From the sequence record PZ386957.1: a stretch of DNA of 64,000 nucleotides; one strand, 5' to 3'. Source of the stretch: a phage. This document shows positions 34,932 to 47,256 of this stretch, one piece after another. The notes under the pieces are model-generated. The model saw only the letters and a program-made list of their open reading frames with translations, was not told the origin of the DNA and ran no database searches. Position 1 is the first letter of the stretch, and the number at the start of each line of letters is the position of its first letter. A program made the translations under genes and the position numbers.

Positions 34932-36983
34932 TTACATTTTAAATTTATCTGGCATTGCGTCTACAGATACCAGATCAGCAATAAGCTGGCGTAGAGTTGC
35001 TTTGTCTGCTTTCTTGCGTTCTGTCTTAGCTTCGGTAATAAAGCTGGAGAAAGACAGGTCAGAAGCAGGTTTAACAACACCTTCACGGATGAATGCATCA
35101 CCGTCCGCGATCATCTCGCCAGATTCTTGTAATGCTGCCAGTTCATTTTTGGTCATAATATGTGCCTCAATGTAATAAGTTTCTTGTGAATCCGTCGATG
35201 CCGTAGCACGAGTTACCGTATCAAAGGATAACACAACACCGCGAGGAAGTAAAATCTCGCATTCTTTGTAAGCAAATGCTTTGTTACCTACTGGCAATAC
35301 AGGGATGTTTTCCGCGCCAGCAATGGAGAAAGCAACATTAGCGCCACCTTCACCGCGAGATCCAGCCATAGAATCAACACCAGCAACGGCACTAGCCACG
35401 TTTGCATTCCAGCCACCAAAGATATTAGGTGCAAGGGATGTGCTCACATAGTTTTTAAAGTAAAACGCTTTTTGCTTACGTGCAGTTTCCCACATTTGCG
35501 ACCGGAAGTCCATACCACGATACAGAATAGTACCCGGATCAAGTTTAACTCCATAGTTAGCGAAGGCATTATCCAGTGCATCACACATCTTGACCAATTC
35601 TTCTGGATCTGCTACACCTTCAAACTCTTCCAGTTTTCGATCTGTCAGGAAGTTGTTCATGTTAATGTATGCTGCATCGGCGTATTCGCTTAATACAAAA
35701 CCTTCCGCACCTGGTAGGTCAAGATCAATATCTGCCATCATTTCACCCATGTTGCTAGCAATTGCTTCAAACATACCGGAAGCAACATTACGCAGGGCAT
35801 CGGTTTTAATCTGGGTGATATGACTACGCAGCATTTCAGCTTTTATGTCTGCTGGCATAGCCGGATCTACTCGGTCCATTGCAAGGGCAGTGATCTTGTT
35901 TTCGAATACTTCCTCGCTCATGATTTCTTTTAAGCGTTTAATTGATGCCGCGATAACTTCCGCAGACAACGGATCATATTGGTCCTGAACTTTTACCAGT
36001 TCACTTACTGCGTATTTTGCATCGGCTTCGCTTTCAAAGATAGTACGCATAAAGCCATAGCGAGTGATAATATCACTTGTCCAGTCATTCAAAGAACGGG
36101 CGGTTGAACGTTCTAAGGCTTGACGATCGATCAGAGTATTAAACTGTTTCTTCGGTTCCGCTTCGGTAATGTCTTCTTCCGGTTTAAGATTAATTTTTTC
36201 TGGATGATTGACATAATCACCGTTATATGTCGCTTGAGTTTTCAGCATTTCTTCTTTAGTCAAACGAGATTTAGCCGCTACGCGTTGTTCCGCTTCCGCG
36301 TTTCGTTCTTCTTCTGCTGCAAGGCTAGCCGCATATGCTTCATCTTTAGTAAGAGATTCGCCAGTAGCTTTAGATACCCAGCGATCACCTAAATCACTTT
36401 CTACTTTAGTGAACAAGGACTCATCCAGTTTAATCCCTTTAATCTTATCAATCGCCATCCCTCGACGCTTGACAACAACTAAAGCGATCTTTTTGCTGGT
36501 CATTACTTCCTGCTGGAATACTTCAAACTTCGGAGTACGACGCACTAAACGCTCTATAACTCGTTTAACCAGTTCGGTCTTGCCTTTCATACGGGAAACA
36601 TTAAAACGGAACATAACAGCGTCTAATTGAGCTTTACGGGCGGTTTCCATCACCACATCAAAAGCACTTGCCATAACAGCAATCGGGTTATCGCCTAGAC
36701 CATTTTTAAGCTGTACAATTCGACCGCTTTTATTCATCTCACACAGGACCACATGCGCGGTTTTATCACCCACGCGAATAATTTTAGGTGTTTTGTTGGT
36801 GAAGTTGCAAAGACGAACAATCACATCTTTATCGCGTGTCTGTACTGCAAAAAGCTGTTTTGGGTTCTGCTTCGGCTTTAGGCACTGTACAGGGGCAATG
36901 CTACCAAAGTTTTCTTCCTCTTCTGTTAACAGCCATTTCTCAAAAGATTCAATCATTAGATCGTCGATTTCTAAGTTAAACAT
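34932..36983 (-). CDS. alt: Alt-like ADP-ribosyltransferase
   Basis: 683 aa (T4 Alt is of similar size); C-terminal ART motifs ILYRGMD, YVSTSL, KECEILLPRG; synteny downstream of DNA ligase. Confidence 0.85.
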   Translation of the reverse strand: MFNLEIDDLMIESFEKWLLTEEEENFGSIAPVQCLKPKQNPKQLFAVQTRDKDVIVRLCNFTNKTPKIIRVGDKTAHVVLCEMNKSGRIVQLKNGLGDNPIAVMASAFDVVMETARKAQLDAVMFRFNVSRMKGKTELVKRVIERLVRRTPKFEVFQQEVMTSKKIALVVVKRRGMAIDKIKGIKLDESLFTKVESDLGDRWVSKATGESLTKDEAYAASLAAEEERNAEAEQRVAAKSRLTKEEMLKTQATYNGDYVNHPEKINLKPEEDITEAEPKKQFNTLIDRQALERSTARSLNDWTSDIITRYGFMRTIFESEADAKYAVSELVKVQDQYDPLSAEVIAASIKRLKEIMSEEVFENKITALAMDRVDPAMPADIKAEMLRSHITQIKTDALRNVASGMFEAIASNMGEMMADIDLDLPGAEGFVLSEYADAAYINMNNFLTDRKLEEFEGVADPEELVKMCDALDNAFANYGVKLDPGTILYRGMDFRSQMWETARKQKAFYFKNYVSTSLAPNIFGGWNANVASAVAGVDSMAGSRGEGGANVAFSIAGAENIPVLPVGNKAFAYKECEILLPRGVVLSFDTVTRATASTDSQETYYIEAHIMTKNELAALQESGEMIADGDAFIREGVVKPASDLSFSSFITEAKTERKKADKATLRQLIADLVSVDAMPDKFKM

Positions 36984-37029
36984 TTTATATCCTCTAGTTG
37001 ATAACCTATAAACCTATATTTATGAAAAA

Positions 37030-37044
37030 GGGGCTTTACGCCCC
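37030..37044 (-). terminator. Terminator after small early gene
   Basis: GGGGC-GTAAA-GCCCC followed by TTTTTC on minus strand. Confidence 0.6.
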
Positions 37045-37045
37045 A

Positions 37046-37225
37046 TTAAAACATCTTAGAAATTAATTCTGCTTTGATTTCGCAGAGAACATCTAAAGAT
37101 TTCTCGTCACCTGCTTTTGCTGCTTCTGCTTGCATTTTTGAAATGGCTTCGAGGTCGGTGCAATTATAAGCCGCCTGAACTTTAGCGATTGCGATGATTG
37201 CAGATTCGATTGTTAAGTGTTTCAT
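37046..37225 (-). CDS. Small early protein (59 aa)
   Basis: ATG with AGGAGA RBS 34 nt downstream of a perfect TTGACA-17-TATAAT promoter; MKHLTIESAIIAIAKVQAAYN... Confidence 0.65.
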   Translation of the reverse strand: MKHLTIESAIIAIAKVQAAYNCTDLEAISKMQAEAAKAGDEKSLDVLCEIKAELISKMF

Positions 37226-37257
37226 GTTTGATTCTCCTTTCGTTTCGGTATGTGTGC

Positions 37258-37286
37258 ATTATAGGGGATCGGTGATCCCCTGTCAA
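37258..37286 (-). promoter_or_regulatory. Early promoter cassette TTGACA-17-TATAAT with palindromic spacer GGGGATCACCGATCCCC
   Basis: Perfect -35 and -10 hexamers; spacer is a palindrome containing two GATC sites. Confidence 0.8.
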
Positions 37287-37293
37287 CAACTTT

Positions 37294-37812
37294 TTAGTTA
37301 TTTTTTAATTGCTCATCTTGCAATAATGCAATCACATGCTGGCGATGTTCTTCCGATTGAGGCACACCGAAAAAGTTTGTTTTGTAGAAATATTCTAATC
37401 GATCTTCTCGTGTGCTCTCTTCCATCATGATAGCTGGTAGACCAAGATTGCGAAAACGTCGCTTTTCTGCTGGCGTAAAATCGCTGTAATACAACATAGA
37501 ATCATCATTACCAGCAATGCTAAACTCATCCTTCATGAAAGAGAATATTGCGTTTAAACGCTGTTTACCGTCCACGATTTCGATCTCATAGCGAGAGCCA
37601 TCATCAATCTTAGCCATTGCGATAGCGCCTACCGGAAAATCATTAATAAGGTTTTCGACAAACATGCGTTTGTTTTCTGTATTCCATACCAACTCACGCT
37701 GATAATCTGGGTTCATGTTGATATAGCCATCTTCTAACCATGCCTCATAGACAGAGATGACAAAGTTTTTAGTATTGGTATAGTAACGGCGTTTAGGCGT
37801 TAAACGGTTCAT
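37294..37812 (-). CDS. DUF262/ParB-like nuclease-domain protein
   Basis: 172 aa from ATG at 37812 (AGGAG RBS); motifs DYQRELVW and VDGKQRL typical of the ParB/DUF262 (GmrSD N-terminal) fold. Confidence 0.7.
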   Translation of the reverse strand: MNRLTPKRRYYTNTKNFVISVYEAWLEDGYINMNPDYQRELVWNTENKRMFVENLINDFPVGAIAMAKIDDGSRYEIEIVDGKQRLNAIFSFMKDEFSIAGNDDSMLYYSDFTPAEKRRFRNLGLPAIMMEESTREDRLEYFYKTNFFGVPQSEEHRQHVIALLQDEQLKNN

Positions 37813-37813
37813 A

Positions 37814-38146
37814 TTATAGTCTCCTGAATGGATCATCACGTAGGTCAATATCTTTTAAGAACTCATCCCATGAATGCCGGATATTGTTCTTAGTTCTCCA
37901 GATAAGAGCAGGAATCGAACGCTCTCCCATCTGGAAGTAAGGATCATATGATCCATATGCCCAATATGCTACTACAATTCCACAATCAGCGCAATAGTAT
38001 TCTATTTCACTTGCTGGCGACCAAAGACCATCAATATGATCGGTGATCTTGCTTTCGATGTTATGGCTATGACAATCAGGGCAACGGATGCAATGACCTT
38101 GTTTATCGTAATTTGACGTTAGCGAATACTTGAATAATCTCATCAT
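37814..38146 (-). CDS. Zinc-ribbon protein
   Basis: 110 aa; CIRCPDCHSH...YYCADCG (two CxxC pairs); start overlaps upstream stop. Confidence 0.65.
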   Translation of the reverse strand: MMRLFKYSLTSNYDKQGHCIRCPDCHSHNIESKITDHIDGLWSPASEIEYYCADCGIVVAYWAYGSYDPYFQMGERSIPALIWRTKNNIRHSWDEFLKDIDLRDDPFRRL

Positions 38147-38859
38147 AGATCCTTATTGGCTTCAAATACTGCCTTTGCAAATCCGCGCGGGGTAAGTGAC
38201 CGGATAGTCTTTGTTCTGGTTCCTTTCCCGCCTAGCTTAGAATGCTGTTTACTGTACCCTTTCTCAATTGGTATCGGTTTCTTTTCTGGCATTATAAAGC
38301 CTTGTCCAGTCCATAGGCAAGTCTTTTTAGGATACATGTCACGGGCGGCGATATAATCAGGGAAGGTCGGATGTATATCATCTTCCGGTAAATATCCGCC
38401 ATATTCCCACGGGTGGAACATATAATCGGGTTTACGCCACATGCTAGAGATAACGCTTACAGGATTCTCTATCATGTAGGGAACGCCCAACCATTCGCCC
38501 AAATAAGCCGATATTTTCGCTGTTTGTACATCTCTGTGTTGAATGAGTGGACCTAGAGTTTTTCTCTTACGTTCAAAGTGTGCAGCACCACTAACCGCTA
38601 AATTTGAACAGCTAGGAAATGCAAAAATCATATCCGGTTTGCCCCATTCAAGATCCATTGCTCTTTCTAGCCAATCCAAATCAATCCAGGTGTTTACATA
38701 GGTAATGTTTGGATGCTCAAATCGGGTATTATACTTTTTGTATGTACCGTGGTCGCCATCGTCAGCATTAAAGCAGATCACCTTATGACCTGCTTTAGCC
38801 CATTCTAGCCCCATTATCCCCGATCCGTCAAAGTTGCAGAATATTAATTTTTGTTTCAC
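38143..38859 (-). CDS. Compact C5-cytosine DNA methyltransferase-like protein
   Basis: 238 aa, GTG start overlapping upstream stop (GTGA); motif I-like FDGSGIMG, PCQ-like FPSCSNLAVSG with Cys, ENV-like MIENPV, C-terminal RSLTPRGFAKAVF resembling RxLTPRExxRLQGF. Confidence 0.65.
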   Translation of the reverse strand: MKQKLIFCNFDGSGIMGLEWAKAGHKVICFNADDGDHGTYKKYNTRFEHPNITYVNTWIDLDWLERAMDLEWGKPDMIFAFPSCSNLAVSGAAHFERKRKTLGPLIQHRDVQTAKISAYLGEWLGVPYMIENPVSVISSMWRKPDYMFHPWEYGGYLPEDDIHPTFPDYIAARDMYPKKTCLWTGQGFIMPEKKPIPIEKGYSKQHSKLGGKGTRTKTIRSLTPRGFAKAVFEANKDL

Positions 38860-39107
38860 GCTGCCCCCATTGGTTTGATAGTAACAGAATCTAAAAGACC
38901 TTTGTTAGCCAGTTCGCGGCAAGTTTTCAGATCCGCAACTTCCCAGCCAGCCGCAATCAGATTATCGATGAGGCTGTTAGCAACGTATTCGCTCATGAAA
39001 GAGCACTGTTTGCCGATGGTGTAGCGTACACGCTGTAATTTAAGTTTACGGAAGCCTTTAACGTTCAGGTCTTTAGCGATTTTCTTTGCGGTTTCGATGT
39101 TAGCCAT
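38856..39107 (-). CDS. Hypothetical protein (83 aa), first gene of the MTase operon
   Basis: ATG with GGAGAATC RBS downstream of promoter at 39148-39176. Confidence 0.65.
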   Translation of the reverse strand: MANIETAKKIAKDLNVKGFRKLKLQRVRYTIGKQCSFMSEYVANSLIDNLIAAGWEVADLKTCRELANKGLLDSVTIKPMGAA

Positions 39108-39147
39108 TGTTTGATTCTCCTAAGTGGTATCTCGTCTTGATGTGTGT

Positions 39148-39176
39148 ATTATAGGGGATCTCCCGATCCCCGTCAA
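39148..39176 (-). promoter_or_regulatory. Early promoter cassette TTGACG-17-TATAAT with palindromic spacer GGGGATCGGGAGATCCCC
   Basis: Hexamers and GATC-containing palindrome seen in sequence. Confidence 0.75.
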
Positions 39177-39190
39177 CAACTTTTTTAAAA

Positions 39191-39472
39191 TTATTCGTGA
39201 TTAGTTTCGATGTTATACATTTTGCACCAGTTCAGCCAATCACCCAGATCCTGATAGTTGATGCTTTTATCTGCTGCCATCGTTTTTGTCTTGATACCCA
39301 TATGTGCGTTATGAGTAACCATTTTTACAGTGAACTCAATTTTATCGCCTTTGGCCTTAACATCAACCAGTTTGGTCCACTGGCTACCAGCGCCGCGAAT
39401 GTTCATACCAACGATGTTTCCGATGTATGCTTCTTTGTTTTTCAGGATTTCGGTTGCTTTGATGAATTTCAT
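39191..39472 (-). CDS. Hypothetical protein (93 aa)
   Basis: ORF with RBS and own promoter. Confidence 0.65.
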   Translation of the reverse strand: MKFIKATEILKNKEAYIGNIVGMNIRGAGSQWTKLVDVKAKGDKIEFTVKMVTHNAHMGIKTKTMAADKSINYQDLGDWLNWCKMYNIETNHE

Positions 39473-39505
39473 TTTTGATTCTCCAGTTCGTTTCGGTATG
39501 GGTGT

Positions 39506-39534
39506 ATTATGCTATGTTCTTACTTTGGTGTCAA
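39506..39534 (-). promoter_or_regulatory. Early promoter cassette (TTGACA-17-CATAAT)
   Basis: Shares the extended conserved context AAAAAGTTGTTGACA ... CATCGAAAC with the other cassettes. Confidence 0.65.
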
Positions 39535-39542
39535 CAACTTTT

Positions 39543-39812
39543 TTAGATATTTTCAGAAATAAATTTTAAAACTTGACGTAAATGTTTCTCATCTTTGATA
39601 GTCGCCGGAAGTTCTTCTTTTACTTCCTGTGCAAGATAGATATTGCCGTTCCAAGTGAAAGATCCGTCTTCGTTTACGCGGTAGCTGAACATCCACTCGC
39701 AATCATTTTCGACTTCATAAACACACAGAAGGGTGTAATCATTAAAGTTATTGATTTCAAGGTCGAGGCCGTGACGTTTTGCAAAGTTGGTAGTGGTTTT
39801 AGTCAATGCCAT
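39543..39812 (-). CDS. Hypothetical protein (89 aa)
   Basis: ORF with GGAGAATC RBS and own promoter. Confidence 0.65.
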   Translation of the reverse strand: MALTKTTTNFAKRHGLDLEINNFNDYTLLCVYEVENDCEWMFSYRVNEDGSFTWNGNIYLAQEVKEELPATIKDEKHLRQVLKFISENI

Positions 39813-39852
39813 TGTTTGATTCTCCTAAGTAGTATCTCGTTTCGATGGGTGT

Positions 39853-39881
39853 ATTATGATATAGGCGTGATCTGGTGTCAA
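39853..39881 (-). promoter_or_regulatory. Early promoter cassette (TTGACA-17-CATAAT)
   Basis: Consensus context as above. Confidence 0.65.
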
Positions 39882-39910
39882 CAACTTTTTTAAAATTTAG
39901 GCAATAAAAA

Positions 39911-39928
39911 GCCGACACTAAGGTCGGC
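39911..39928 (-). terminator. Terminator GCCGACC-TTAG-TGTCGGC + T-run (repeated at 40413)
   Basis: Hairpin followed by TTTTTATTGC on minus strand; the ~35-bp terminator block recurs identically at 40413-40430. Confidence 0.7.
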
Positions 39929-39933
39929 ACATT

Positions 39934-40188
39934 TTAAAAATTCTTGCTATATATGCAAGCCTCATAATCTAGAGGATGACCGCCAATCCTACCAGGCTTA
40001 ATATTCCAACCGCATCGATATTTGCTGACCATGCTAACCGTTTCGGTTCTTAGAGCATTTCTTTGCAAATCATACCCCCTAAATTCTTGTCTATAAGGAC
40101 AGTCCGCTTTGCAAGTTGGCGGTTCTACGTCATTTAGCGGGTCAGAAGCAGTTGGCTTTATTATCAATTCTTTGTTTGCAATAATCAT
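39934..40188 (-). CDS. Hypothetical Cys-containing protein; start uncertain, overlaps upstream ORF in another frame
   Basis: Track ORF 39934-40251; first ATG at 40188 lies inside the ORF ending at 40142, with no clear RBS. Confidence 0.4.
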   Translation of the reverse strand: MIIANKELIIKPTASDPLNDVEPPTCKADCPYRQEFRGYDLQRNALRTETVSMVSKYRCGWNIKPGRIGGHPLDYEACIYSKNF

Positions 40189-40321
40189 AAGCACATCCCA
40201 TTGAAGGCAATTTAACATCTTCGCAATAAGTGTTGAATCCGTCAAATACAATCACTTCGTATTTGACTCCATCGGCGATAGCTTTTACTTTATACCATCC
40301 ATGCTTGTATAAAATCTTCAT
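40142..40321 (-). CDS. Small Cys-rich protein (59 aa)
   Basis: ATG at 40321 with GAGGGAAA RBS downstream of promoter 40355-40383. Confidence 0.6.
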   Translation of the reverse strand: MKILYKHGWYKVKAIADGVKYEVIVFDGFNTYCEDVKLPSMGCAYDYCKQRIDNKANCF

Positions 40322-40354
40322 CTTTATTTCCCTCAATCTCGTTTCGATGGGTGT

Positions 40355-40383
40355 ATTATGCTATACACAGGATCTAGTGTCAA
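40355..40383 (-). promoter_or_regulatory. Early promoter cassette (TTGACA-17-CATAAT)
   Basis: Consensus context. Confidence 0.65.
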
Positions 40384-40412
40384 CAACTTTTTAAAATTTT
40401 ATGCAATAAAAA

Positions 40413-40430
40413 GCCGACACTAAGGTCGGC
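40413..40430 (-). terminator. Terminator (second copy of the 39911 hairpin block)
   Basis: Identical hairpin and flanks. Confidence 0.7.
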
Positions 40431-40438
40431 TAATAAAA

Positions 40439-40747
40439 TCATTTAGACAAATAATCATTCTGTGCAATCCGGTCAGCATGTTCCGGCGTTACGTCAATCG
40501 CAATCACTTTAACGCGTGCTTTCTTGCGACCTGGGTTTTCTCGTAACCAGTGCTCATGACCGTGAACATTTTTATACTGCGATGCTTCTTCGAAGGTACG
40601 GATCGGACCTGGGTAATCAGCGTAAAGGATCTCTAGATCTTCGGTGATGTAAAAATATACATCGTAATTGCTGTTCTCTAGCTTAAGCAGAGACTTTCGG
40701 AACATTGGGAGATTTTCGCGGGTAAATTCAAAGATATTATCTTTCAT
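40439..40747 (-). CDS. HxHW-motif family protein, paralog 1
   Basis: 102 aa; YFYITEDLEI...HGHEHW...VIAIDV. Confidence 0.7.
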   Translation of the reverse strand: MKDNIFEFTRENLPMFRKSLLKLENSNYDVYFYITEDLEILYADYPGPIRTFEEASQYKNVHGHEHWLRENPGRKKARVKVIAIDVTPEHADRIAQNDYLSK

Positions 40748-40797
40748 AGTATTATCCTCAATAGTTGGATGAAAAGGGGGCTTAACGCCCCCATATA

Positions 40798-41085
40798 TTA
40801 AAACAGCCCTTCCTGTACACCGTAGTAGAGTTCGTCACTGATAATTTCATTAATGCGACGGTGTGCATATTCCTGATTTGCGAAGTTGTCAGCAAGTTCT
40901 ACTTTAGTTTCGCCGTCATGAGTCCATTTAGTGATAACTTTACCATCTGCAAATTTGAAGTTGAACTCTTTAGCTACTGCATCGCGTACCAGACGTGCAA
41001 ACTTGTTGTTACGGATTGCATTATCGGTTTCGTGTGCAGCGTGAGCAAATTTGTTAACTTTCAGCGTGATAGTGATGTATGCCAT
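40798..41085 (-). CDS. Hypothetical protein (95 aa)
   Basis: ORF with GGAGAAT RBS. Confidence 0.65.
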   Translation of the reverse strand: MAYITITLKVNKFAHAAHETDNAIRNNKFARLVRDAVAKEFNFKFADGKVITKWTHDGETKVELADNFANQEYAHRRINEIISDELYYGVQEGLF

Positions 41086-41131
41086 AATTTGATTCTCCTA
41101 GTTAGAAAGTGTATCTCGTTTCGATGGGTGT

Positions 41132-41160
41132 ATTATGCTATACACCCGATCTTATGTCAA
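41132..41160 (-). promoter_or_regulatory. Early promoter cassette (TTGACA-17-CATAAT)
   Basis: Consensus context. Confidence 0.65.
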
Positions 41161-41166
41161 CACTTT

Positions 41167-41445
41167 TTATAAAATAATTTTTTGATATTTTTCTATGATG
41201 TTTGTGTAGGTCACGTCAACCGCTAGCACCGTTGCTTCGAATCCACCGTTTAACCAATGGCTATGATCATGGTCGTGAAAGAAACCTAGACCAGTACGAA
41301 GACCTTCTTTATATTCTGCGCGTACATTCAGTTTGTCGTCGATAAACAGATAAAACCATGAATTTTTACTAGGATTGATGATACAACCTTTCAGATTAGG
41401 GAGAATATCACGACTAAGAATAAACTTATCACCTACTTTGAACAT
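41167..41445 (-). CDS. HxHW-motif family protein, paralog 2
   Basis: 92 aa from ATG at 41445 (GTGAGGA RBS); FYLFIDDKL...HDHDHSHW...VLAVDV. Confidence 0.7.
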   Translation of the reverse strand: MFKVGDKFILSRDILPNLKGCIINPSKNSWFYLFIDDKLNVRAEYKEGLRTGLGFFHDHDHSHWLNGGFEATVLAVDVTYTNIIEKYQKIIL

Positions 41446-41449
41446 AATA

Positions 41450-41770
41450 TTAGTCCTCACTTATAAGGTCAAACCAATTGTTTTTCGCATAATGCTTAAT
41501 GCGTGCTTGATCTGCTTCCGATGGTGATAGATTCCATGCAACCACTACAACTTCTGACGCATCGTCATCCGTTTCTGATACCCAATGATTGTGATTCATA
41601 CAGTTATTTGCTATCGAGTGAGCAAATGATTTCATCACTGGAGACGTATAATCATAGTAACGGATTTTCAGATTTTCATCAACGTACAAATAGATCGTAT
41701 AAGGTTTATATTCAGTAACCAGTAACAGACAGTTACGCAATTCTGGGAAAATATTTTTAGTTAATTTCAT
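41450..41770 (-). CDS. HxHW-motif family protein, paralog 3
   Basis: 106 aa; IYLYVDENL...MNHNHW...VVVAWN. Confidence 0.65.
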   Translation of the reverse strand: MKLTKNIFPELRNCLLLVTEYKPYTIYLYVDENLKIRYYDYTSPVMKSFAHSIANNCMNHNHWVSETDDDASEVVVVAWNLSPSEADQARIKHYAKNNWFDLISED

Positions 41771-41972
41771 ATTCTAGTTCTCCGTAATACACGGTAATCC
41801 ATTTTTCTTCATACTTTGTATCTTTCCAACACACAATCCCGTTTACTGTGCAATCTTTGGAATTGACGAATGATTCATATTGTTCTGCATCTTCCATCAT
41901 TGCATGAGCGGTCTTTTCATCGAATATATCGCAGATCGCTTTATATGCTCGATAATCTTTAAATTTGCTCAT
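41757..41972 (-). CDS. Small protein, tandem paralog a (MSKFKDY...)
   Basis: 71 aa from ATG at 41972; about 50% identical to the adjacent 41975-42184 product. Confidence 0.6.
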   Translation of the reverse strand: MSKFKDYRAYKAICDIFDEKTAHAMMEDAEQYESFVNSKDCTVNGIVCWKDTKYEEKWITVYYGELEYEIN

Positions 41973-41974
41973 AA

Positions 41975-42184
41975 TTAAGACCACTCAAGAGTTTTTGAAA
42001 ACACATCTATCCATTGTTGAGTATATGCGGTTTCTTTCCATGATACAATACCAGTCGAATAATGGTTTTTGTTTCCAGAAAAGGACGGGCATTTTGAGGC
42101 ATCTTCCATCATCTTTTCGGCGAACTCTGGTTCGTATACTCGCAAGATCTGTTGATATGCTTTATAATCTTTAAATTTGCTCAT
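41975..42184 (-). CDS. Small protein, tandem paralog b (MSKFKDY...)
   Basis: 69 aa; shares MSKFKDYxAY...MMEDA...GIVxWKxTxY with the neighbour. Confidence 0.6.
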   Translation of the reverse strand: MSKFKDYKAYQQILRVYEPEFAEKMMEDASKCPSFSGNKNHYSTGIVSWKETAYTQQWIDVFSKTLEWS

Positions 42185-42449
42185 AATTGTTAACTACCTT
42201 ATCAGCTTCTTTTATTGTTTTTACATCAACTGCGATAATCCGTAAAGGTTCGTCGAAGGTCCACCAATGATCGTGAATATCGGCTTGTGATTTATCACCA
42301 AAGGAATCACGAATATCATTTTTACATTTATAGCCAATGTGACCTTCATAGTCAACATAAAGGTAATTATCGAAAATCGGCGTTTTTAAGATCATACCGA
42401 AAAATCTTTCTTTGTGTGTCTTATCCAGTGTTGCAGTAATTCTCATCAT
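42171..42449 (-). CDS. HxHW-motif family protein, paralog 4
   Basis: 92 aa; YLYVDYEG...IHDHWW...IIAVDV; AGAGGAA RBS. Confidence 0.7.
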   Translation of the reverse strand: MMRITATLDKTHKERFFGMILKTPIFDNYLYVDYEGHIGYKCKNDIRDSFGDKSQADIHDHWWTFDEPLRIIAVDVKTIKEADKVVNNYEQI

Positions 42450-42461
42450 AATATATTCCTC

Positions 42462-42641
42462 TTAGAAAGGGATGGTCATTTCTTGAGCTTGTACATTCTC
42501 GTTAGGATTAAACTTCATCCAACCGATATTGTCTACCAGCATATGCACATTTTTATCATATCCTACGTGAGTAGTCAACACTAAATGTGTTTTACCTTCA
42601 ACGATGATTTCCATGTACTTCTGAACTTCGATAGCTTTCAT
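42462..42641 (-). CDS. Small protein (59 aa), below the ORF-track length cutoff
   Basis: ATG at 42641 with GGAGA RBS, 33 nt downstream of promoter 42674-42702. Confidence 0.5.
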   Translation of the reverse strand: MKAIEVQKYMEIIVEGKTHLVLTTHVGYDKNVHMLVDNIGWMKFNPNENVQAQEMTIPF

Positions 42642-42673
42642 TTTGATTCTCCGTTTGTTGTCTTGATGGGAGT

Positions 42674-42702
42674 ATCTTACTACTCCCTTTAATCATTGTC
42701 AA
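42674..42702 (-). promoter_or_regulatory. Early promoter cassette (TTGACA-17-TAAGAT) with GGGAGT...ACTCCC palindrome
   Basis: -35 consensus, weaker -10, palindromic spacer. Confidence 0.5.
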
Positions 42703-42705
42703 CTA

Positions 42706-42873
42706 TTATTTGTTAATTTCCGGTGCGTTGCTCGGATAGTAACCTTCTTTAACACCCAGATATTTCGCAACCATTCCGGTGATCTTCTGTGCTACTACGA
42801 TATCGAATTTCAGGTAGTCTTCACCGTGGTTTGCTACAATGTATGCTTCGCATTCTGCTTTAGTCTGGAACAT
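42706..42873 (-). CDS. Small protein (55 aa)
   Basis: ATG at 42873 with AGGAGA RBS downstream of promoter 42908-42936. Confidence 0.55.
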   Translation of the reverse strand: MFQTKAECEAYIVANHGEDYLKFDIVVAQKITGMVAKYLGVKEGYYPSNAPEINK

Positions 42874-42907
42874 TTTTGATTCTCCTATATCTCGTTGGTA
42901 TGTGTGC

Positions 42908-42936
42908 ATTATAGGGGATCACCGATCCCCTGTCAA
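42908..42936 (-). promoter_or_regulatory. Early promoter cassette TTGACA-17-TATAAT with palindromic spacer GGGGATCGGTGATCCCC
   Basis: Perfect hexamers and GATC palindrome. Confidence 0.8.
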
Positions 42937-42943
42937 CAACTTT

Positions 42944-43252
42944 TTATTCTTCATCTTCAACTTTATCTTTATATGCGTATTTCATAAATTTGTCTGCTAC
43001 TTTGTCGGCCTTTTCTGGTTTGACGTCTGACGCCAGGACAATGGCTAGATCGGTTTCGTCGTTCCCACCATACCAGTGATTATGTGTGTCGTTTTCATCA
43101 ATATAGAATTTATCACCTTCGTAAGTTCGAGCAAATACATCTAAATTCCCATCGATGTAAAAGATCCAATCTTCGTAAAGAATAACCGTATTAGCAAGGT
43201 TCTTGTTGCCTTCAACGAAAGGTTCGGTTACAAACAAATTGGTACGTTCCAT
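42944..43252 (-). CDS. HxHW-motif family protein, paralog 5
   Basis: 102 aa; IFYIDGNL...THNHW...AIVLASDV; GAGGA RBS. Confidence 0.7.
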   Translation of the reverse strand: MERTNLFVTEPFVEGNKNLANTVILYEDWIFYIDGNLDVFARTYEGDKFYIDENDTHNHWYGGNDETDLAIVLASDVKPEKADKVADKFMKYAYKDKVEDEE

Positions 43253-43308
43253 AATATTATCCTCAAATTATGGGAGAGTATTACCCTCCCAATGATTGTT
43301 ATATTACA

Positions 43309-43629
43309 TTACACAAAATGGCGTGTCAATGCTTCTTTTGCTGTTCCGCTAAGACTTTCGATCTCGCCTGGCATAACATCAACTGCCAGAACTTCTACAA
43401 CATCCTCGGACCATAACCAGTGAGTATGACCTTTGTAGAACTTGATAACCAGACTACCTTCCTCGTCCCATTTAACGCTATCGCTAGCCCACCACACATC
43501 ACCGTCGATAAAGTTGATGTAAAGTACGCTACGCCACATAGAATTAGTTACTTTTAGGACCGCGCCTTTCATCTCTTCCACGGTGTGGTCTTCCATTTTG
43601 AAGACCTCGCCTACCTGAACTTTTGCCAT
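43309..43629 (-). CDS. HxHW-motif family protein, paralog 6
   Basis: 106 aa; LYINFIDGDV...GHTHW...VLAVDV; AGAGGTG RBS. Confidence 0.7.
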   Translation of the reverse strand: MAKVQVGEVFKMEDHTVEEMKGAVLKVTNSMWRSVLYINFIDGDVWWASDSVKWDEEGSLVIKFYKGHTHWLWSEDVVEVLAVDVMPGEIESLSGTAKEALTRHFV

Positions 43630-43646
43630 TTAGTCACCTCTCTTTA

Positions 43647-43826
43647 TTACATAACAATCACGCCAGCCGTTGAAAGTTGATGTTTCAGTTGAGCATTTTC
43701 TGCTACCGTCAAATCAATGATTTCTTGTGACGCTGCAATCATATAACCATTGGTGATATTGTTTTGCATCAGTTCAATGGTTTCTTCGTTGTAGCGGATT
43801 TTAGCGATGATTTCGTTGAAGTTCAT
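43647..43826 (-). CDS. Small protein (59 aa)
   Basis: ATG at 43826 with AGGAGAATC RBS downstream of promoter 43861-43890. Confidence 0.55.
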   Translation of the reverse strand: MNFNEIIAKIRYNEETIELMQNNITNGYMIAASQEIIDLTVAENAQLKHQLSTAGVIVM

Positions 43827-43860
43827 AATTGATTCTCCTAGTTCGTTTCGGTATGTGTGT

Positions 43861-43890
43861 AGTATAGGGGATCGGTGATCCCCTGTCAAC
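43861..43890 (-). promoter_or_regulatory. Early promoter cassette (TTGACA-18-TATACT) with palindromic spacer GGGGATCACCGATCCCC
   Basis: Consensus -35, imperfect -10, GATC palindrome. Confidence 0.6.
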
Positions 43891-43902
43891 AACTTTTTTG
43901 AA

Positions 43903-44379
43903 TTATTTTTCTTGATGCTCGCGCTCATACTTTTCGAAATAAAATTCTACTGGCTGGTCGTGGATTGACAGTAAGCCAAAGCGTTTAGCCGCGCGTAATC
44001 CCATGTTACGTTGAATGTACTTCTGGAAGTTCTCGCGTATACACTTACGCCAGTATTCTAAGCCCATACAGCTTTTATAAAGATTGCATTGCACACACGA
44101 CGGATTCATGTTATCAAGTATATCATGTTCCGGTTTATGCATTCCTACAACCTTATACTTCCACGATCCATCATCATTACGGGAAATTCGTCCATTTTCA
44201 TCATAGACTACTTTTGAGCGTCGCAATACTGGTTTGATGTGGTCTGCGTGCCAGCGATCCCCTAGTTCCTCGCCACAATAGGCACAACGTCCACCGTATT
44301 TCATTTTCAGGATCTGGCGTTGCTCTTTCTTTGACAATTTTTTAGGTTTAGGGGCTTTCGCCCCTTCATTATCACACAT
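43903..44379 (-). CDS. HNH endonuclease
   Basis: 158 aa; CAYCGEELGDRWHADHIKP (CxxC...HxDH) and later Cys pair; start overlaps DNA ligase stop. Confidence 0.75.
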   Translation of the reverse strand: MCDNEGAKAPKPKKLSKKEQRQILKMKYGGRCAYCGEELGDRWHADHIKPVLRRSKVVYDENGRISRNDDGSWKYKVVGMHKPEHDILDNMNPSCVQCNLYKSCMGLEYWRKCIRENFQKYIQRNMGLRAAKRFGLLSIHDQPVEFYFEKYEREHQEK

Positions 44380-45868
44380 CGAATACCTCTTTTACTGTAT
44401 TTGCAGTTGTCTTATCGTAGCGAATACGTTTGATGATTGGGAGAAATAACGAGAACTCCGGTTCATCTTCTTTACGTGACTTGCTGCGAATATACCCGTT
44501 ACATGTCATCTCAATGACTTTTCCAATCAGGTTATGACGATCAGACCATAGCATTTCTCGGTCTAGTTCATTTCGACGGTCAAACGGAATCACACGTTCA
44601 ATACCATCATCACCTTTTTCGGTTGTAGTGTCGGTTAATCCCGATCCGGTATTAGTCATCATTCGTCCACACGCACTACGGACAGTAAAACCGCCTACCT
44701 TATTAGGATCTTTACTATGCGGATATACATCAACAATTTCCGCATCGAAGTCAATCACTTCTTTAAATTTGACCTGATCTTTACTGCGACGATCTTCAAA
44801 TACGCCATGTAAATTTTTAAGGATAATGCCTTCTAAGCCCATGTTTACATAGCGATGATATACTTCGCGAGCTTCATCGATATTGTTAACTACAGTATTT
44901 TCGATTATCTGAACACGAGGATCGTTGAGTTCGTCAACAATCTGTTTTAGTTCTTCGAATCGATCTTTATATTGCTTCGTTGCTTTCTCATTTCCGTAGT
45001 ACACATCACGGTCGATAACATCCCAGACAGTGTAAACAATACACTGGGCTTCTTCTTTTGGAATAGTTCCTTTCAGTGATTTGTTGAGGATACCATTTCC
45101 GGTCTGACGATCTGCAACAACGGATTCTTTAACCGCTTCCGCTACTGGCGTTAATGGCATTTCCTCTTCTTCAAATATCCATGACAGAGTACCATCATAA
45201 ACGCTCTCAACGAAGTTCTGTGCTGGTGTTTGCGAAAGGGTAGGCATATATACCAATTCGCCATCTAGAACAATTCCACGGCCTCGTAGACGCTCTAAAA
45301 CAGCAAACAAATCATCAAGCCCCTGATAGGTATTGCCTGAACGGGTATAGATTGCTAATGTTTCCCCGTCAATGTCAGCCATCCCACGAGCGCCATCACT
45401 TTTAAGTTGTGCATACGCCGGATATTTGATATTAGCAATAGTCTTATCAGAATATGACGATGCAAGGTGACATGGTTGCTGAGGAATCAGTTTCTTCCAT
45501 ACCTTGTTTGCGGTAGTAGCGGAACAACCGCACTCCAGATCACGATTCAGGACCATCATTGCAACTTTAGCATCATCTTCTGACAAGCAAGTCAGAGTAT
45601 CGGTAACTAGCTGTAATGCAGCATTGCCAGTTACTTGACGCGTGGCAAGTTTATTTTTAAAGACCTGTAATGCACCGGATAAAGACAATACAGATGAATA
45701 ACGAGAAGGTTTATCGTATTTCTTTACGCCAAACGTAACCTGTTTGCAATATGCCAGATAAAAGCATTCTTTCAGCGTTTCATTGCTTGCAGATTCTTTC
45801 AGAATCTTTTCTTTCAGCGATGTTTTGTCCGTTGCCGAAAGCTGATTAATGATATTAAGAATTGACAT
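44372..45868 (-). CDS. 30: ATP-dependent DNA ligase
   Basis: 498 aa from ATG at 45868; KSDGARG adenylation motif and collinearity with T4 gp30 (TGNAA, DLECG, ANKVW, LDGELVY, NGIxNKSLKGTIxKEEAQ, GLEGIILKN). Confidence 0.93.
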   Translation of the reverse strand: MSILNIINQLSATDKTSLKEKILKESASNETLKECFYLAYCKQVTFGVKKYDKPSRYSSVLSLSGALQVFKNKLATRQVTGNAALQLVTDTLTCLSEDDAKVAMMVLNRDLECGCSATTANKVWKKLIPQQPCHLASSYSDKTIANIKYPAYAQLKSDGARGMADIDGETLAIYTRSGNTYQGLDDLFAVLERLRGRGIVLDGELVYMPTLSQTPAQNFVESVYDGTLSWIFEEEEMPLTPVAEAVKESVVADRQTGNGILNKSLKGTIPKEEAQCIVYTVWDVIDRDVYYGNEKATKQYKDRFEELKQIVDELNDPRVQIIENTVVNNIDEAREVYHRYVNMGLEGIILKNLHGVFEDRRSKDQVKFKEVIDFDAEIVDVYPHSKDPNKVGGFTVRSACGRMMTNTGSGLTDTTTEKGDDGIERVIPFDRRNELDREMLWSDRHNLIGKVIEMTCNGYIRSKSRKEDEPEFSLFLPIIKRIRYDKTTANTVKEVFDV

Positions 45869-46334
45869 TTTCACCTCGTTTTGTTAAACGTTCACGAATA
45901 TCATTGAGGATACTACAAAATTCTGATTCAGTCAATATAGTCTTTAATGGATCTGTTCCACCTATACTGTGACGCAATTTCTTATTTCCTGTAGCAAGCA
46001 ATGCTTTACAAAAATCTGGGTTATTCCGTGCCATCGTAACAAATGCCAGATGTACCAGTCTGTAATAATGCTCACTCATTCGATGAATCGGGCGACCCTG
46101 AAAATATAACATGTGATTCTCTATCTTTTCAGTCCTTCCGGTTCTTTTTGCTTTGCCACCGTGCATCAAAAAGATTTCTCTTTGTCTCTGAGGGTTCTTA
46201 AATCTTAACCCCTGTAAAAATCCTTCTGTGCTGTTAATATCGCAACCAAATAGACGGAATGGTCTTTTATTGAAATTACTCAACTCACCCGATGGATAAG
46301 GTCCACCAGCATAGATATCAATTTCAGAAGTCAT
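45855..46334 (-). CDS. NADAR (DUF1768/YbiA)-like protein
   Basis: 159 aa; N-terminal GELSNFNKRPFRLFGCDINSTEGFLQGLRF fits the NADAR signature (LSNF..PF...G..F.S.E...Q..KF). Confidence 0.55.
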   Translation of the reverse strand: MTSEIDIYAGGPYPSGELSNFNKRPFRLFGCDINSTEGFLQGLRFKNPQRQREIFLMHGGKAKRTGRTEKIENHMLYFQGRPIHRMSEHYYRLVHLAFVTMARNNPDFCKALLATGNKKLRHSIGGTDPLKTILTESEFCSILNDIRERLTKRGENVNS

Positions 46335-46488
46335 TGAAACTAATCTCGCTAATCAGAGAGAACGGATCATAATCGTCATGAGGAATATCGATAGTAATCG
46401 AATGAGGATTTACCCATACACCAAACTGGTCTTCTTCGGTGAATACTTCGGTATGAATTTCGTGGATGTTTACATTCATAGTTTTCAT
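46324..46488 (-). CDS. Small acidic protein (54 aa) overlapping the NADAR start
   Basis: ATG at 46488 with AAGGAA RBS; ends 11 nt inside the NADAR ORF. Confidence 0.45.
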   Translation of the reverse strand: MKTMNVNIHEIHTEVFTEEDQFGVWVNPHSITIDIPHDDYDPFSLISEISFNDF

Positions 46489-46540
46489 AATAAAAATTCC
46501 TTAATAATCAATAACTTACAAAATCATATAGCCAAAATAT

Positions 46541-46559
46541 AGGCGGGATTATTTCCCGC
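46541..46559 (-). terminator. Terminator after gene 31
   Basis: GGCGGGA-AATAA-TCCCGCC followed by T-rich sequence on minus strand. Confidence 0.6.
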
Positions 46560-46570
46560 CGTTTAAATCA

Positions 46571-46894
46571 TTAACCGTAAACTACCACAATATTCTGTTT
46601 GTGCGTTACAGTCCATTTCAGGTCGATCTCTTCTTCCTTCTTAACGCCGTTAATAACGTCTGGATGAGGAACTTTATTAAGTTTGCCATGAGGAAGCAGT
46701 ACAATTTTACCCAGCAATTCTTTATCTACATTCTCGCCAATATCAATGATTTTACCTACTAGCGGAATCTCACCCATAGTGCGCTTTTGCTCAATGATAA
46801 TACCCATAGAGCTTTTAACTTCGGTTCCTGCGCTTTCTGCTTTAGCTTCGATAATTACATAATCACCAAGTGCTTTAGGAGTTTTAACGGTCAT
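46571..46894 (-). CDS. 31: GroES-like co-chaperonin for capsid folding
   Basis: 107 aa; LPHGKLNKVPHP resembles T4 gp31 LPVGQIRNVPHP; position next to cd. Confidence 0.8.
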   Translation of the reverse strand: MTVKTPKALGDYVIIEAKAESAGTEVKSSMGIIIEQKRTMGEIPLVGKIIDIGENVDKELLGKIVLLPHGKLNKVPHPDVINGVKKEEEIDLKWTVTHKQNIVVVYG

Positions 46895-46935
46895 AATTTT
46901 ATTACCTCTTCAAATCAATACAGTTTAATGATGAA

Positions 46936-47256
46936 TTATTTATAAATTTCGACGATCTGCGCTGGAGCCAATCCGTCTACGTGAATCAGTGTATCAAGCC
47001 CGAAGCTACGAAAACCTTCAACTGCAATTTCATATACTGGCAAAGATGTTTCTGATTCTTTACGCGGTTTTTCAACATTCGGAACTAACCATTTTTCGTA
47101 TGTTTCAAATGGCATCAATGCTGGATCGCGAGTAGCAATCATATCTCGGACAGTACCATCTTTCTTAGTAAACTGTAAAGCGTGAGTACCTACCGAAAAC
47201 ATTTTCTTTAGTGCTTCACGAAGTACGATATTATCAATTTGTTCAATCATTATCAA
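46936..47256 (-). CDS. Hypothetical protein (106 aa)
   Basis: ORF between cd and gene 31. Confidence 0.6.
   Translation of the reverse strand: MIMIEQIDNIVLREALKKMFSVGTHALQFTKKDGTVRDMIATRDPALMPFETYEKWLVPNVEKPRKESETSLPVYEIAVEGFRSFGLDTLIHVDGLAPAQIVEIYK

Follow-up and report, generated by a model that had tools for sequence, protein, structure and literature searches.

Six small early genes in the ligase-alt region of a Krischvirus are old paralogs of one orphan protein family with a His-Trp core

Phage-therapy cocktails make use of RB49-like phages, in which roughly one gene in two is without known function. The hyperplastic regions of T4-type phages hold many orphan open reading frames (ORFs) together with PeSL cassettes, in which a strong sigma-70 early promoter is combined with a stem-loop terminator (Arbiol et al. 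2010, PMC2839356). What a small early ORFan can do is illustrated by T4 gene 55.2, whose product inhibits host topoisomerase I (PMC4396842). Here we describe six small genes lying between nt 40439 and 43629 of a 64,000-nt stretch of phage DNA (record PZ386957.1, hereafter the window). The window belongs to a Krischvirus, i.e., an RB49-like T4-type coliphage: all of the 59 phage records matching the 4-kb region are Krischvirus, with 95% identity to UPWr_E1 and 92% to RB49 in this region. The six ORFs are on the minus strand, in the ligase (gene 30)-alt hyperplastic region, flanked on one side by ligase gene 30 and the adjacent HNH gene (43903–45874) and on the other by a DNA methyltransferase gene (38143–38859). 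An earlier note on this DNA had listed the same six proteins and had placed them in a hyperplastic early region; both statements agree with our results, the phage being of the T4 type and the region being transcribed early. The genes are:

43309–43629, minus strand: p43309, 106 aa, RB49 ORF208 type, HTHW at residues 68–71 (nt 43417–43428)
42944–43252, minus strand: p42944, 102 aa, RB49 ORF206 type, HNHW at residues 57–60 (nt 43073–43084)
42171–42449, minus strand: p42171, 92 aa, RB49 ORF203 type, HDHW at residues 59–62 (nt 42264–42275)
41450–41770, minus strand: p41450, 106 aa, RB49 ORF200 type, HNHW at residues 60–63 (nt 41582–41593)
41167–41445, minus strand: p41167, 92 aa, RB49 ORF199 type, HSHW at residues 61–64 (nt 41254–41265)
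40439–40747, minus strand: p40439, 102 aa, RB49 ORF197 type, HEHW at residues 64–67 (nt 40547–40558)

All six have an ATG start and a GAGG-type ribosome-binding site (RBS). Annotated orthologous genes exist in RB49, UPWr_E1, GEC-3S and Sf20, those of RB49 being each labelled 'hypothetical'.

These genes prove to be anciently diverged paralogs of a single orphan family, protein-coding and lineage-restricted, for which no relative with a known fold or function could be detected. Databases divide the family into several PHROG families and assign no function: phrog_9345, 17255, 16486, 15972 and 15965, all of unknown function, and the 'hypothetical' ORFs of RB49 are the same proteins. Literature searches did not retrieve any description of the family, nor, in the papers that could be searched, of the paralogy, the fixed six-gene set or the invariant His-Trp. 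As a protein family it is undescribed, but its type is well known: the small, early orphan genes found in hyperplastic regions of T4-type phages. With the PeSL-flanked ORFans (PMC2839356; PMC4122927) the six genes share the genome region and its cassettes, the character of early, small and non-core ORFs, and the recombinational exchange of modules. However, classical PeSL ORFans (RB49 ORF192, 195, 196 and 211) vary in presence among close relatives and are directly flanked by PeSLs, whereas the six family genes are kept throughout the genus, in no case come first after a PeSL and make up one paralog family. Also named among the closest known systems is PA14_01140 (PDB 6ox6_B), which is the immunity protein for Tas1, a type VI effector.

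Homology among the six proteins was evaluated by leave-one-out profiles, each built from five members and searched against the 960 six-frame ORFs of the window. The sixth member was retrieved in every case (E = 8e-16, 2.8e-7, 6.3e-12, 4e-6, 4.1e-8 and 6.4e-7), the best unrelated ORF giving E = 0.06 or worse, with a pairwise identity among the six of only 20–30%. An independent model, phrog_9345, matched five of them. The pattern H.HW was seen seven times in all six-frame ORFs of the window versus 0.69 expected, six of these occurrences being family members, and no seventh copy of the family was found within the window. By these scores the six genes are true homologues and form one protein family, as the earlier note had claimed from the shared motif.

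The motif itself is looser than that note had described. H-x-H-W is indeed carried by all six members of the window. The N-terminal strand Y(L/I)(Y/F)(V/I)D, on the contrary, is strictly matched by three of them only (the remainder reading YFYIT, IFYID and VLYIN), and the same holds for the downstream (V/I)(L/I)AVDV (VIAIDV, VVAWNL and VLASDV in the others), so that both are degenerate. In the wider family alignment only His-Trp is invariant across 29–33 members; the first His is kept in at least 90% of them, but P0083 and P0084 have Ser instead and P0092 lacks it.

The family has a very restricted distribution. A profile search of 1.84 billion representative proteins gave 21 matches, nearly all of them Krischvirus-type phage proteins, and the two weakest (P0101 and P0102) appear spurious. 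Two word-indexed searches of 5.8 billion clusters added close variants only, the second, with a broader profile, retrieving no new lineage. The known sources of the matches are Krischvirus genomes, Krischvirus-like metagenomic contigs of 165–170 kb and short contigs. By tblastn against 50,697 phage records Krischvirus alone was matched, each paralog type being present in 54–57 of about 59 Krischvirus records (the p43309 type in 56), and no family member was found in the homologous 30-alt interval of T4. An uncultured relative (L003), whose ligase is 72% identical to that of the window and whose closest cultured relatives are Krischvirus, carries two copies across its whole ligase-alt interval. 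Four adjacent family genes, coding for five domains and overlapping or abutting their neighbours, were detected on a 2.1-kb metagenomic contig (L002), where P0087 (L002 823–1434) is a 203-aa natural fusion of two family domains with three single-domain members in tandem beside it. On the results of these searches, the family does not extend beyond Krischvirus and a small number of close relatives that are uncultured.

The earlier note had taken the expansion to six divergent copies as a suggestion of diversifying selection. Our results support neither such selection nor a recent expansion or a plastic gene set. Six members in identical order were found in all five relatives compared (RB49, UPWr_E1, GEC-3S, Sf20 and a metagenomic Krischvirus-like genome) and also in L016, and none of the seven Krischvirus-type loci scanned lacked a six-member set in this order. 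The gene-wide ratio of non-synonymous to synonymous divergence (dN/dS), calculated for the window versus five related genomes, was 0.00–0.30 for all six genes and similar in the neighbouring genes; according to these values, purifying selection dominates. In the bit-score matrix and neighbour-joining tree, divergent metagenomic proteins were placed inside type-specific clades (43309-type, 42171-type, 41450/40439-type and 42944-type), p41450 and p40439 being the closest paralogs (pairwise E about 1e-11). This placement indicates that the paralogs split before the phage lineages, and on this tree the paralog types are older than the genus.

Differences between genomes appear to arise mainly by whole-allele replacement. 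The GEC-3S counterpart of p42171 shares 53% identity with it, and p41167 and p41450 are 35% and 51% identical to those of L007, where the flanks are otherwise 96–100% identical. Synonymous divergence is saturated in the variable alleles (dS about 1 or more), which are thus old alleles that have been exchanged and not the product of fast protein evolution. In one Krischvirus-like lineage, represented by L007 (9989–10671) and L016 (9651–10324), the slot of p41167 is occupied by a second p41450-type gene, so that the total remains six. The most divergent allele of the six is p42944, with 72–82% identity to its counterparts everywhere: none of 56 cultured Krischvirus records carries it at 90% identity or more, and 48 do so at 60–80%. 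The overall pattern is one of subfunctionalised, conserved paralogy with modular exchange, not of recent diversifying expansion.

A recently expanded and rapidly diversifying arsenal of anti-defence or host-takeover proteins, as first proposed, is hence an unlikely account of the six genes. It is favoured by the early expression, the hyperplastic location and the small size of the proteins, by p42944 alleles that differ by 14–28% among otherwise close genomes, and by the allele swaps at p42171, p41167 and p41450. The p42944 clade is in addition strongly acidic (net charge −12 to −15; pI 4.4 for p42944), as some DNA-mimic inhibitors are. The low dN/dS of all six genes, paralog types that predate the genus, a fixed copy number and order, the near-universal presence of each type and the saturated dS of the variable alleles nevertheless argue against this proposal, and correct the reading of any multi-copy set in a hyperplastic phage region as an arms-race expansion. 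What were six separate 'hypothetical proteins' become one family with a His-Trp core, a confident predicted domain (see below) and a clear evolutionary pattern (the paralogs are old, under purifying selection and retained across the genus, and their alleles are swapped), and hence a tractable target for knock-outs and interaction screens.

Some further features of the region were observed in the comparison of genomes. p42944 is 99% identical to the metagenomic protein P0042, and the region is mosaic: a 100% identical counterpart of p40439 is found in GoldenSnicker, one of p41450 in ELT3 and one of p41167 in RB49. An extra ORF of 88–89 aa is found directly upstream of the p43309-type gene in some Krischvirus-like genomes, L007 (7918–8184), L011 (5130–5396), L016 (7581–7847) and L010 (763–1032), and not in the window, where 17 nt lie between 43629 and 43647. 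Its product (IIYVTEDD...GNGHLIN...VHLLAHSVTIDE) is probably a degenerate seventh member that has lost HxHW, with GNGHL at that position; support is weak but consistent (hidden Markov model E = 0.0035; hhalign E = 0.038; Foldseek match to an 88-aa JSE protein with probability 0.99).

To define the transcription layout, strong PeSL-type sigma-70 promoters were mapped on the minus strand of the region, scoring the consensus over 12 positions. Seven strong PeSL cassettes were detected (−35 at 43889, 42936, 41160, 40383, 39881, 39534 and 39176), each preceding a different small non-family ORF. None lies directly upstream of a family member, two being placed immediately 3' of p42944 and p41167, and the promoters and terminators annotated by the GEC-3S authors show the same layout. 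The statement of the earlier note that most of the six genes have their own promoter cassette has thus to be abandoned. The elements next to the six genes are:

43861–43889, minus strand: PeSL-type early promoter, TTGACA-17-TATACT, ahead of the ORF209 homologue (43647–43826); counterpart annotated in GEC-3S
43301–43329, minus strand: weak promoter-like match, 10/12, followed by a GC hairpin in the p42944 leader
42908–42936, minus strand: PeSL-type early promoter, 12/12 consensus, with a GC hairpin in the spacer, directly past the p42944 stop
42674–42702, minus strand: weaker promoter-like site, 10/12, ahead of the ORF204 homologue (42462–42641); a promoter is annotated there in GEC-3S
41132–41160, minus strand: PeSL-type early promoter, directly past the p41167 stop and ahead of the ORF198 homologue (40798–41085)
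40776–40792, minus strand: terminator-like GC hairpin with a T-run, past the ORF198 homologue and ahead of p40439; GEC-3S has a terminator annotation there
40412–40431, minus strand: terminator-like hairpin, 3' of p40439, belonging to the next PeSL

With this layout, the six genes are early-transcribed from strong sigma-70 promoters, all at downstream positions within three short polycistronic units, in accordance with the reported co-expression of novel RB49 ORFs with early genes (PMC1524935). The first putative unit (−35 at 43889) would include the ORF209 homologue, p43309 as its second gene, and p42944. The second (−35 at 42936, plus the weaker 42702) would include the ORF205 homologue (42706–42873), the ORF204 homologue, p42171, the ORF202 and ORF201 homologues, p41450 and p41167; its main promoter is the equivalent of RB49 PeSL206/205, whose promoter activity was shown by experiment, the terminator function of PeSLs also having been tested experimentally (PMC2839356). 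The third (−35 at 41160) would run through the ORF198 homologue, the hairpin at 40792–40776 and p40439 up to the terminator at 40431–40412. p40439 is therefore flanked on both sides by terminator-like hairpins, and its expression would occur through read-through of the one at 40776–40792. The only promoter-like match directly upstream of any family member is the weak one at 43301–43329, ahead of p42944. In the second unit, the stop of p41450 and the start of p41167 are separated by 4 nt and the RBS of p41167 falls within the 3' end of p41450, thus making translational coupling of the two genes likely. Neither a T4-type late promoter (TATAAATA) nor a MotA-box promoter was found upstream of any of the six members, and no Rfam family was detected in 36000–47000. 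As for the cassettes themselves, in two of them the GC-rich stem-loop lies within the promoter, filling the spacer at 42936 (TTGACA-GGGGATCGGTGATCCCC-TATAAT) and overlapping the −10 element at 41160 (41125–41160), so that terminator and promoter functions are on the same bases.

Structure prediction was performed with AlphaFold2 for p40439 and p42944, with mean predicted local distance difference test (pLDDT) scores of 81.1 and 81.5, respectively, and predicted template-modelling scores (pTM) of 0.76–0.77. Both models contain, in the same order, strands 1–4, the HxHW loop, strand 5 and a C-terminal helix. Each protein is thus predicted to be one compact domain, made of four N-terminal beta strands, a less-ordered His-Trp loop, a fifth strand and a C-terminal helix. 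Foldseek searches of BFVD retrieved the other paralogs at template-modelling (TM) scores of 0.64–0.77, plus the probable seventh member. The sole structure-level hint of the fold beyond the RB49 lineage was BFVD M4SRW3, an 87-aa protein of Pseudoalteromonas phage pYD6-A (Foldseek probability 0.97, E = 0.068, TM 0.54–0.62).

Searches for characterised domains were consistent with the earlier note, in which the family had not been recognised. No significant match was obtained by scanning the six members with Pfam, NCBIfam and PADLOC, or 33 members with Pfam; no PADLOC model, i.e., no known anti-phage defence component, was matched at E up to 1; and sequence searches of the PDB with two family profiles gave no significant match. 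Single scattered matches to PROCT, Tubulin, Cupin_2 and T4_Y03C were considered as noise. A dCTP deaminase/dUTPase match was obtained with P0057 alone (E = 0.42) and was rejected, the family profiles giving no such match at E up to 10. The HIT signature (H-phi-H-phi-H-phi-phi) was also discarded: residues after H-x-H-W are variable, a third His is not in register and no Pfam HIT match was found.

Our preferred interpretation, held tentatively and at somewhat less than an even chance, is that the six genes code for non-enzymatic early binding proteins with one scaffold, a His-Trp loop and paralog-specific partners, possibly acting in pairs. The six proteins would be made in the first minutes of infection and would bind stoichiometrically to partner proteins. 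The scaffold would be common to all six and the His-Trp loop a joint contact or ligand site, while the N-terminal strands, the pre-motif loop and the C-terminal helix would set the partner of each type, be it a host factor or another family member. Action in pairs is suggested by the natural fusion P0087, by the gene overlaps in L002 and by the 4-nt gap between p41450 and p41167, with the RBS of p41167 in the upstream gene. Variation between phages would come from recombinational swapping of whole alleles in this region rather than from fast evolution by point mutation. As to the non-enzymatic character, we counted the lack of any domain match, the presence of two invariant residues only and the acidic to neutral nature of the proteins. 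Stoichiometric modulation of a host protein, as by the product of T4 gene 55.2, is the kind of action proposed, as an analogy only.

Several observations weigh against this interpretation. The mechanism of binding is argued from context and from absent enzyme features, and confidence in both models is lowest at the HxHW loop (pLDDT 66–72). The P0087 fusion was seen once, on a single 2.1-kb contig, and may be an assembly or frameshift artefact. The gene-wide dN/dS values are compatible with positive selection at a few sites. Genus-wide retention of all six genes is unlike that of patchy anti-defence genes and could indicate a more central phage function. Finally, His-x-His-Trp, often with acidic residues 2–8 positions further downstream, could serve in metal binding or catalysis.

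This last point leads to the reading of the family as small metal-binding proteins or mini-enzymes, which we regard as rather unlikely. Two His, together with a nearby carboxylate or with the His pair of a second subunit, would bind a metal (Zn, Ni, Fe or Mn), whether for catalysis, to sequester the metal or to bridge a dimer. The presence of HxHW in all six members of the window and the near-constant first His beside the invariant second one are in line with such a site, as is the frequency of Asp or Glu 2–8 residues past Trp; the tandem fusion P0087 would moreover join two HxH pairs. However, the first His is the residue that is lost in P0083, P0084 and P0092, the acidic residue has no fixed position (P0079 has none within 10 residues), and there is no conserved Cys or second conserved His motif. 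The metal- or ligand-binding His dyad suggested by the earlier note is therefore possible but weakened, as the first His is not invariant and no third ligand is found at a fixed position.

Cupins are the known proteins to which such a site could be compared. Cupin motif 1, which binds metal, reads G-x5-H-x-H-x3,4-E-x6-G, and motif 2 reads G-x5-P-x-G-x2-H-x3-N. In p40439, p41450 and p43309 a Glu is present at +3 or +4 past Trp, giving an HxH-x3-4-E spacing that resembles motif 1, and the family domain is likewise beta-rich and of about 100 aa. Unlike cupins, the family has no motif 2 and no fixed acidic residue, and the models are not jelly-roll barrels; Pfam Cupin_2 matched one of 33 members, at E = 0.2. 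Membership was thus rejected.

The constancy of the set brings in a further alternative, to which we assign a low probability: the paralogs might form a hetero-oligomer, like LSm rings and other multi-paralog complexes, with one shared early function. An example would be the reprogramming of host RNA polymerase in a lineage without MotA and middle promoters, since RB49 has neither motA nor recognisable middle promoters (PMC1524935). Six genes are kept at every Krischvirus-type locus scanned, including those in which a duplicate of one type has taken the place of another; nearly all records of the genus have each type, and each is under purifying selection; the genes abut closely and a natural fusion exists. 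All this would fit such a complex. The sister-lineage L003, on the contrary, has two copies only across its ligase-alt interval, and the distribution of the six genes over three units, with p40439 behind a terminator-like hairpin, would entail unequal dosage.

A more specific version of this idea, which we consider quite unlikely, would have the six paralogs (seven in some genomes) as fixed subunits or paired modules of an undescribed fold, jointly performing an early step of host reprogramming that is peculiar to the RB49 lineage, with the His-Trp loop as common contact or metal-bridging site. The switch from early to later transcription, in phages without MotA or recognisable middle promoters, would be the candidate step. 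Should the family turn out to be a new class of host-factor inhibitors, or to form a multi-subunit early complex, phage biologists would find this of real interest.

Very unlikely, in our opinion, is nucleic-acid binding through a KOW/Sm/SH3-like barrel, on early mRNAs or DNA. The public annotation of P0057 as 'KOW2-KOW3 domains of Spt5' and the KOW-like 'KVGD...LKG' at the start of the p41167 and p43309 types point in this direction. However, the KVGD pattern is found in these two paralog types only, no Pfam KOW or LSM match was obtained even at E = 5, and members are mostly acidic to neutral (pI 4.2–6.9), with two of 26 basic. No significant SH3-like structural match was found either, and KOW/SH3-like membership was rejected.

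Finally, some observations concern the neighbouring genes and leaders. The ORF201 and ORF202 homologues (41757–41972 and 41975–42184, minus strand), located between p42171 and p41450, form another pair of paralogs in tandem, with 46% identity to each other (E = 2e-21); both match phrog_8471, of unknown function. A 192-nt ORF207 separates the p43309 and p42944 homologues in RB49, GEC-3S and Sf20 (L001 6279–6470); in its place the window has only a 56-nt spacer (43253–43308), with a weak promoter-like site and a hairpin. The leaders and RBS of p40439 and p42944 share a near-identical 20-nt sequence, TTGAGGATAATAyTATGrAA (40742–40761 and 43247–43266), each leader being preceded by a GC-rich hairpin (40776–40792 and about 43267–43285, respectively). 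This common leader could be a translational or processing signal, or a recombination scar.

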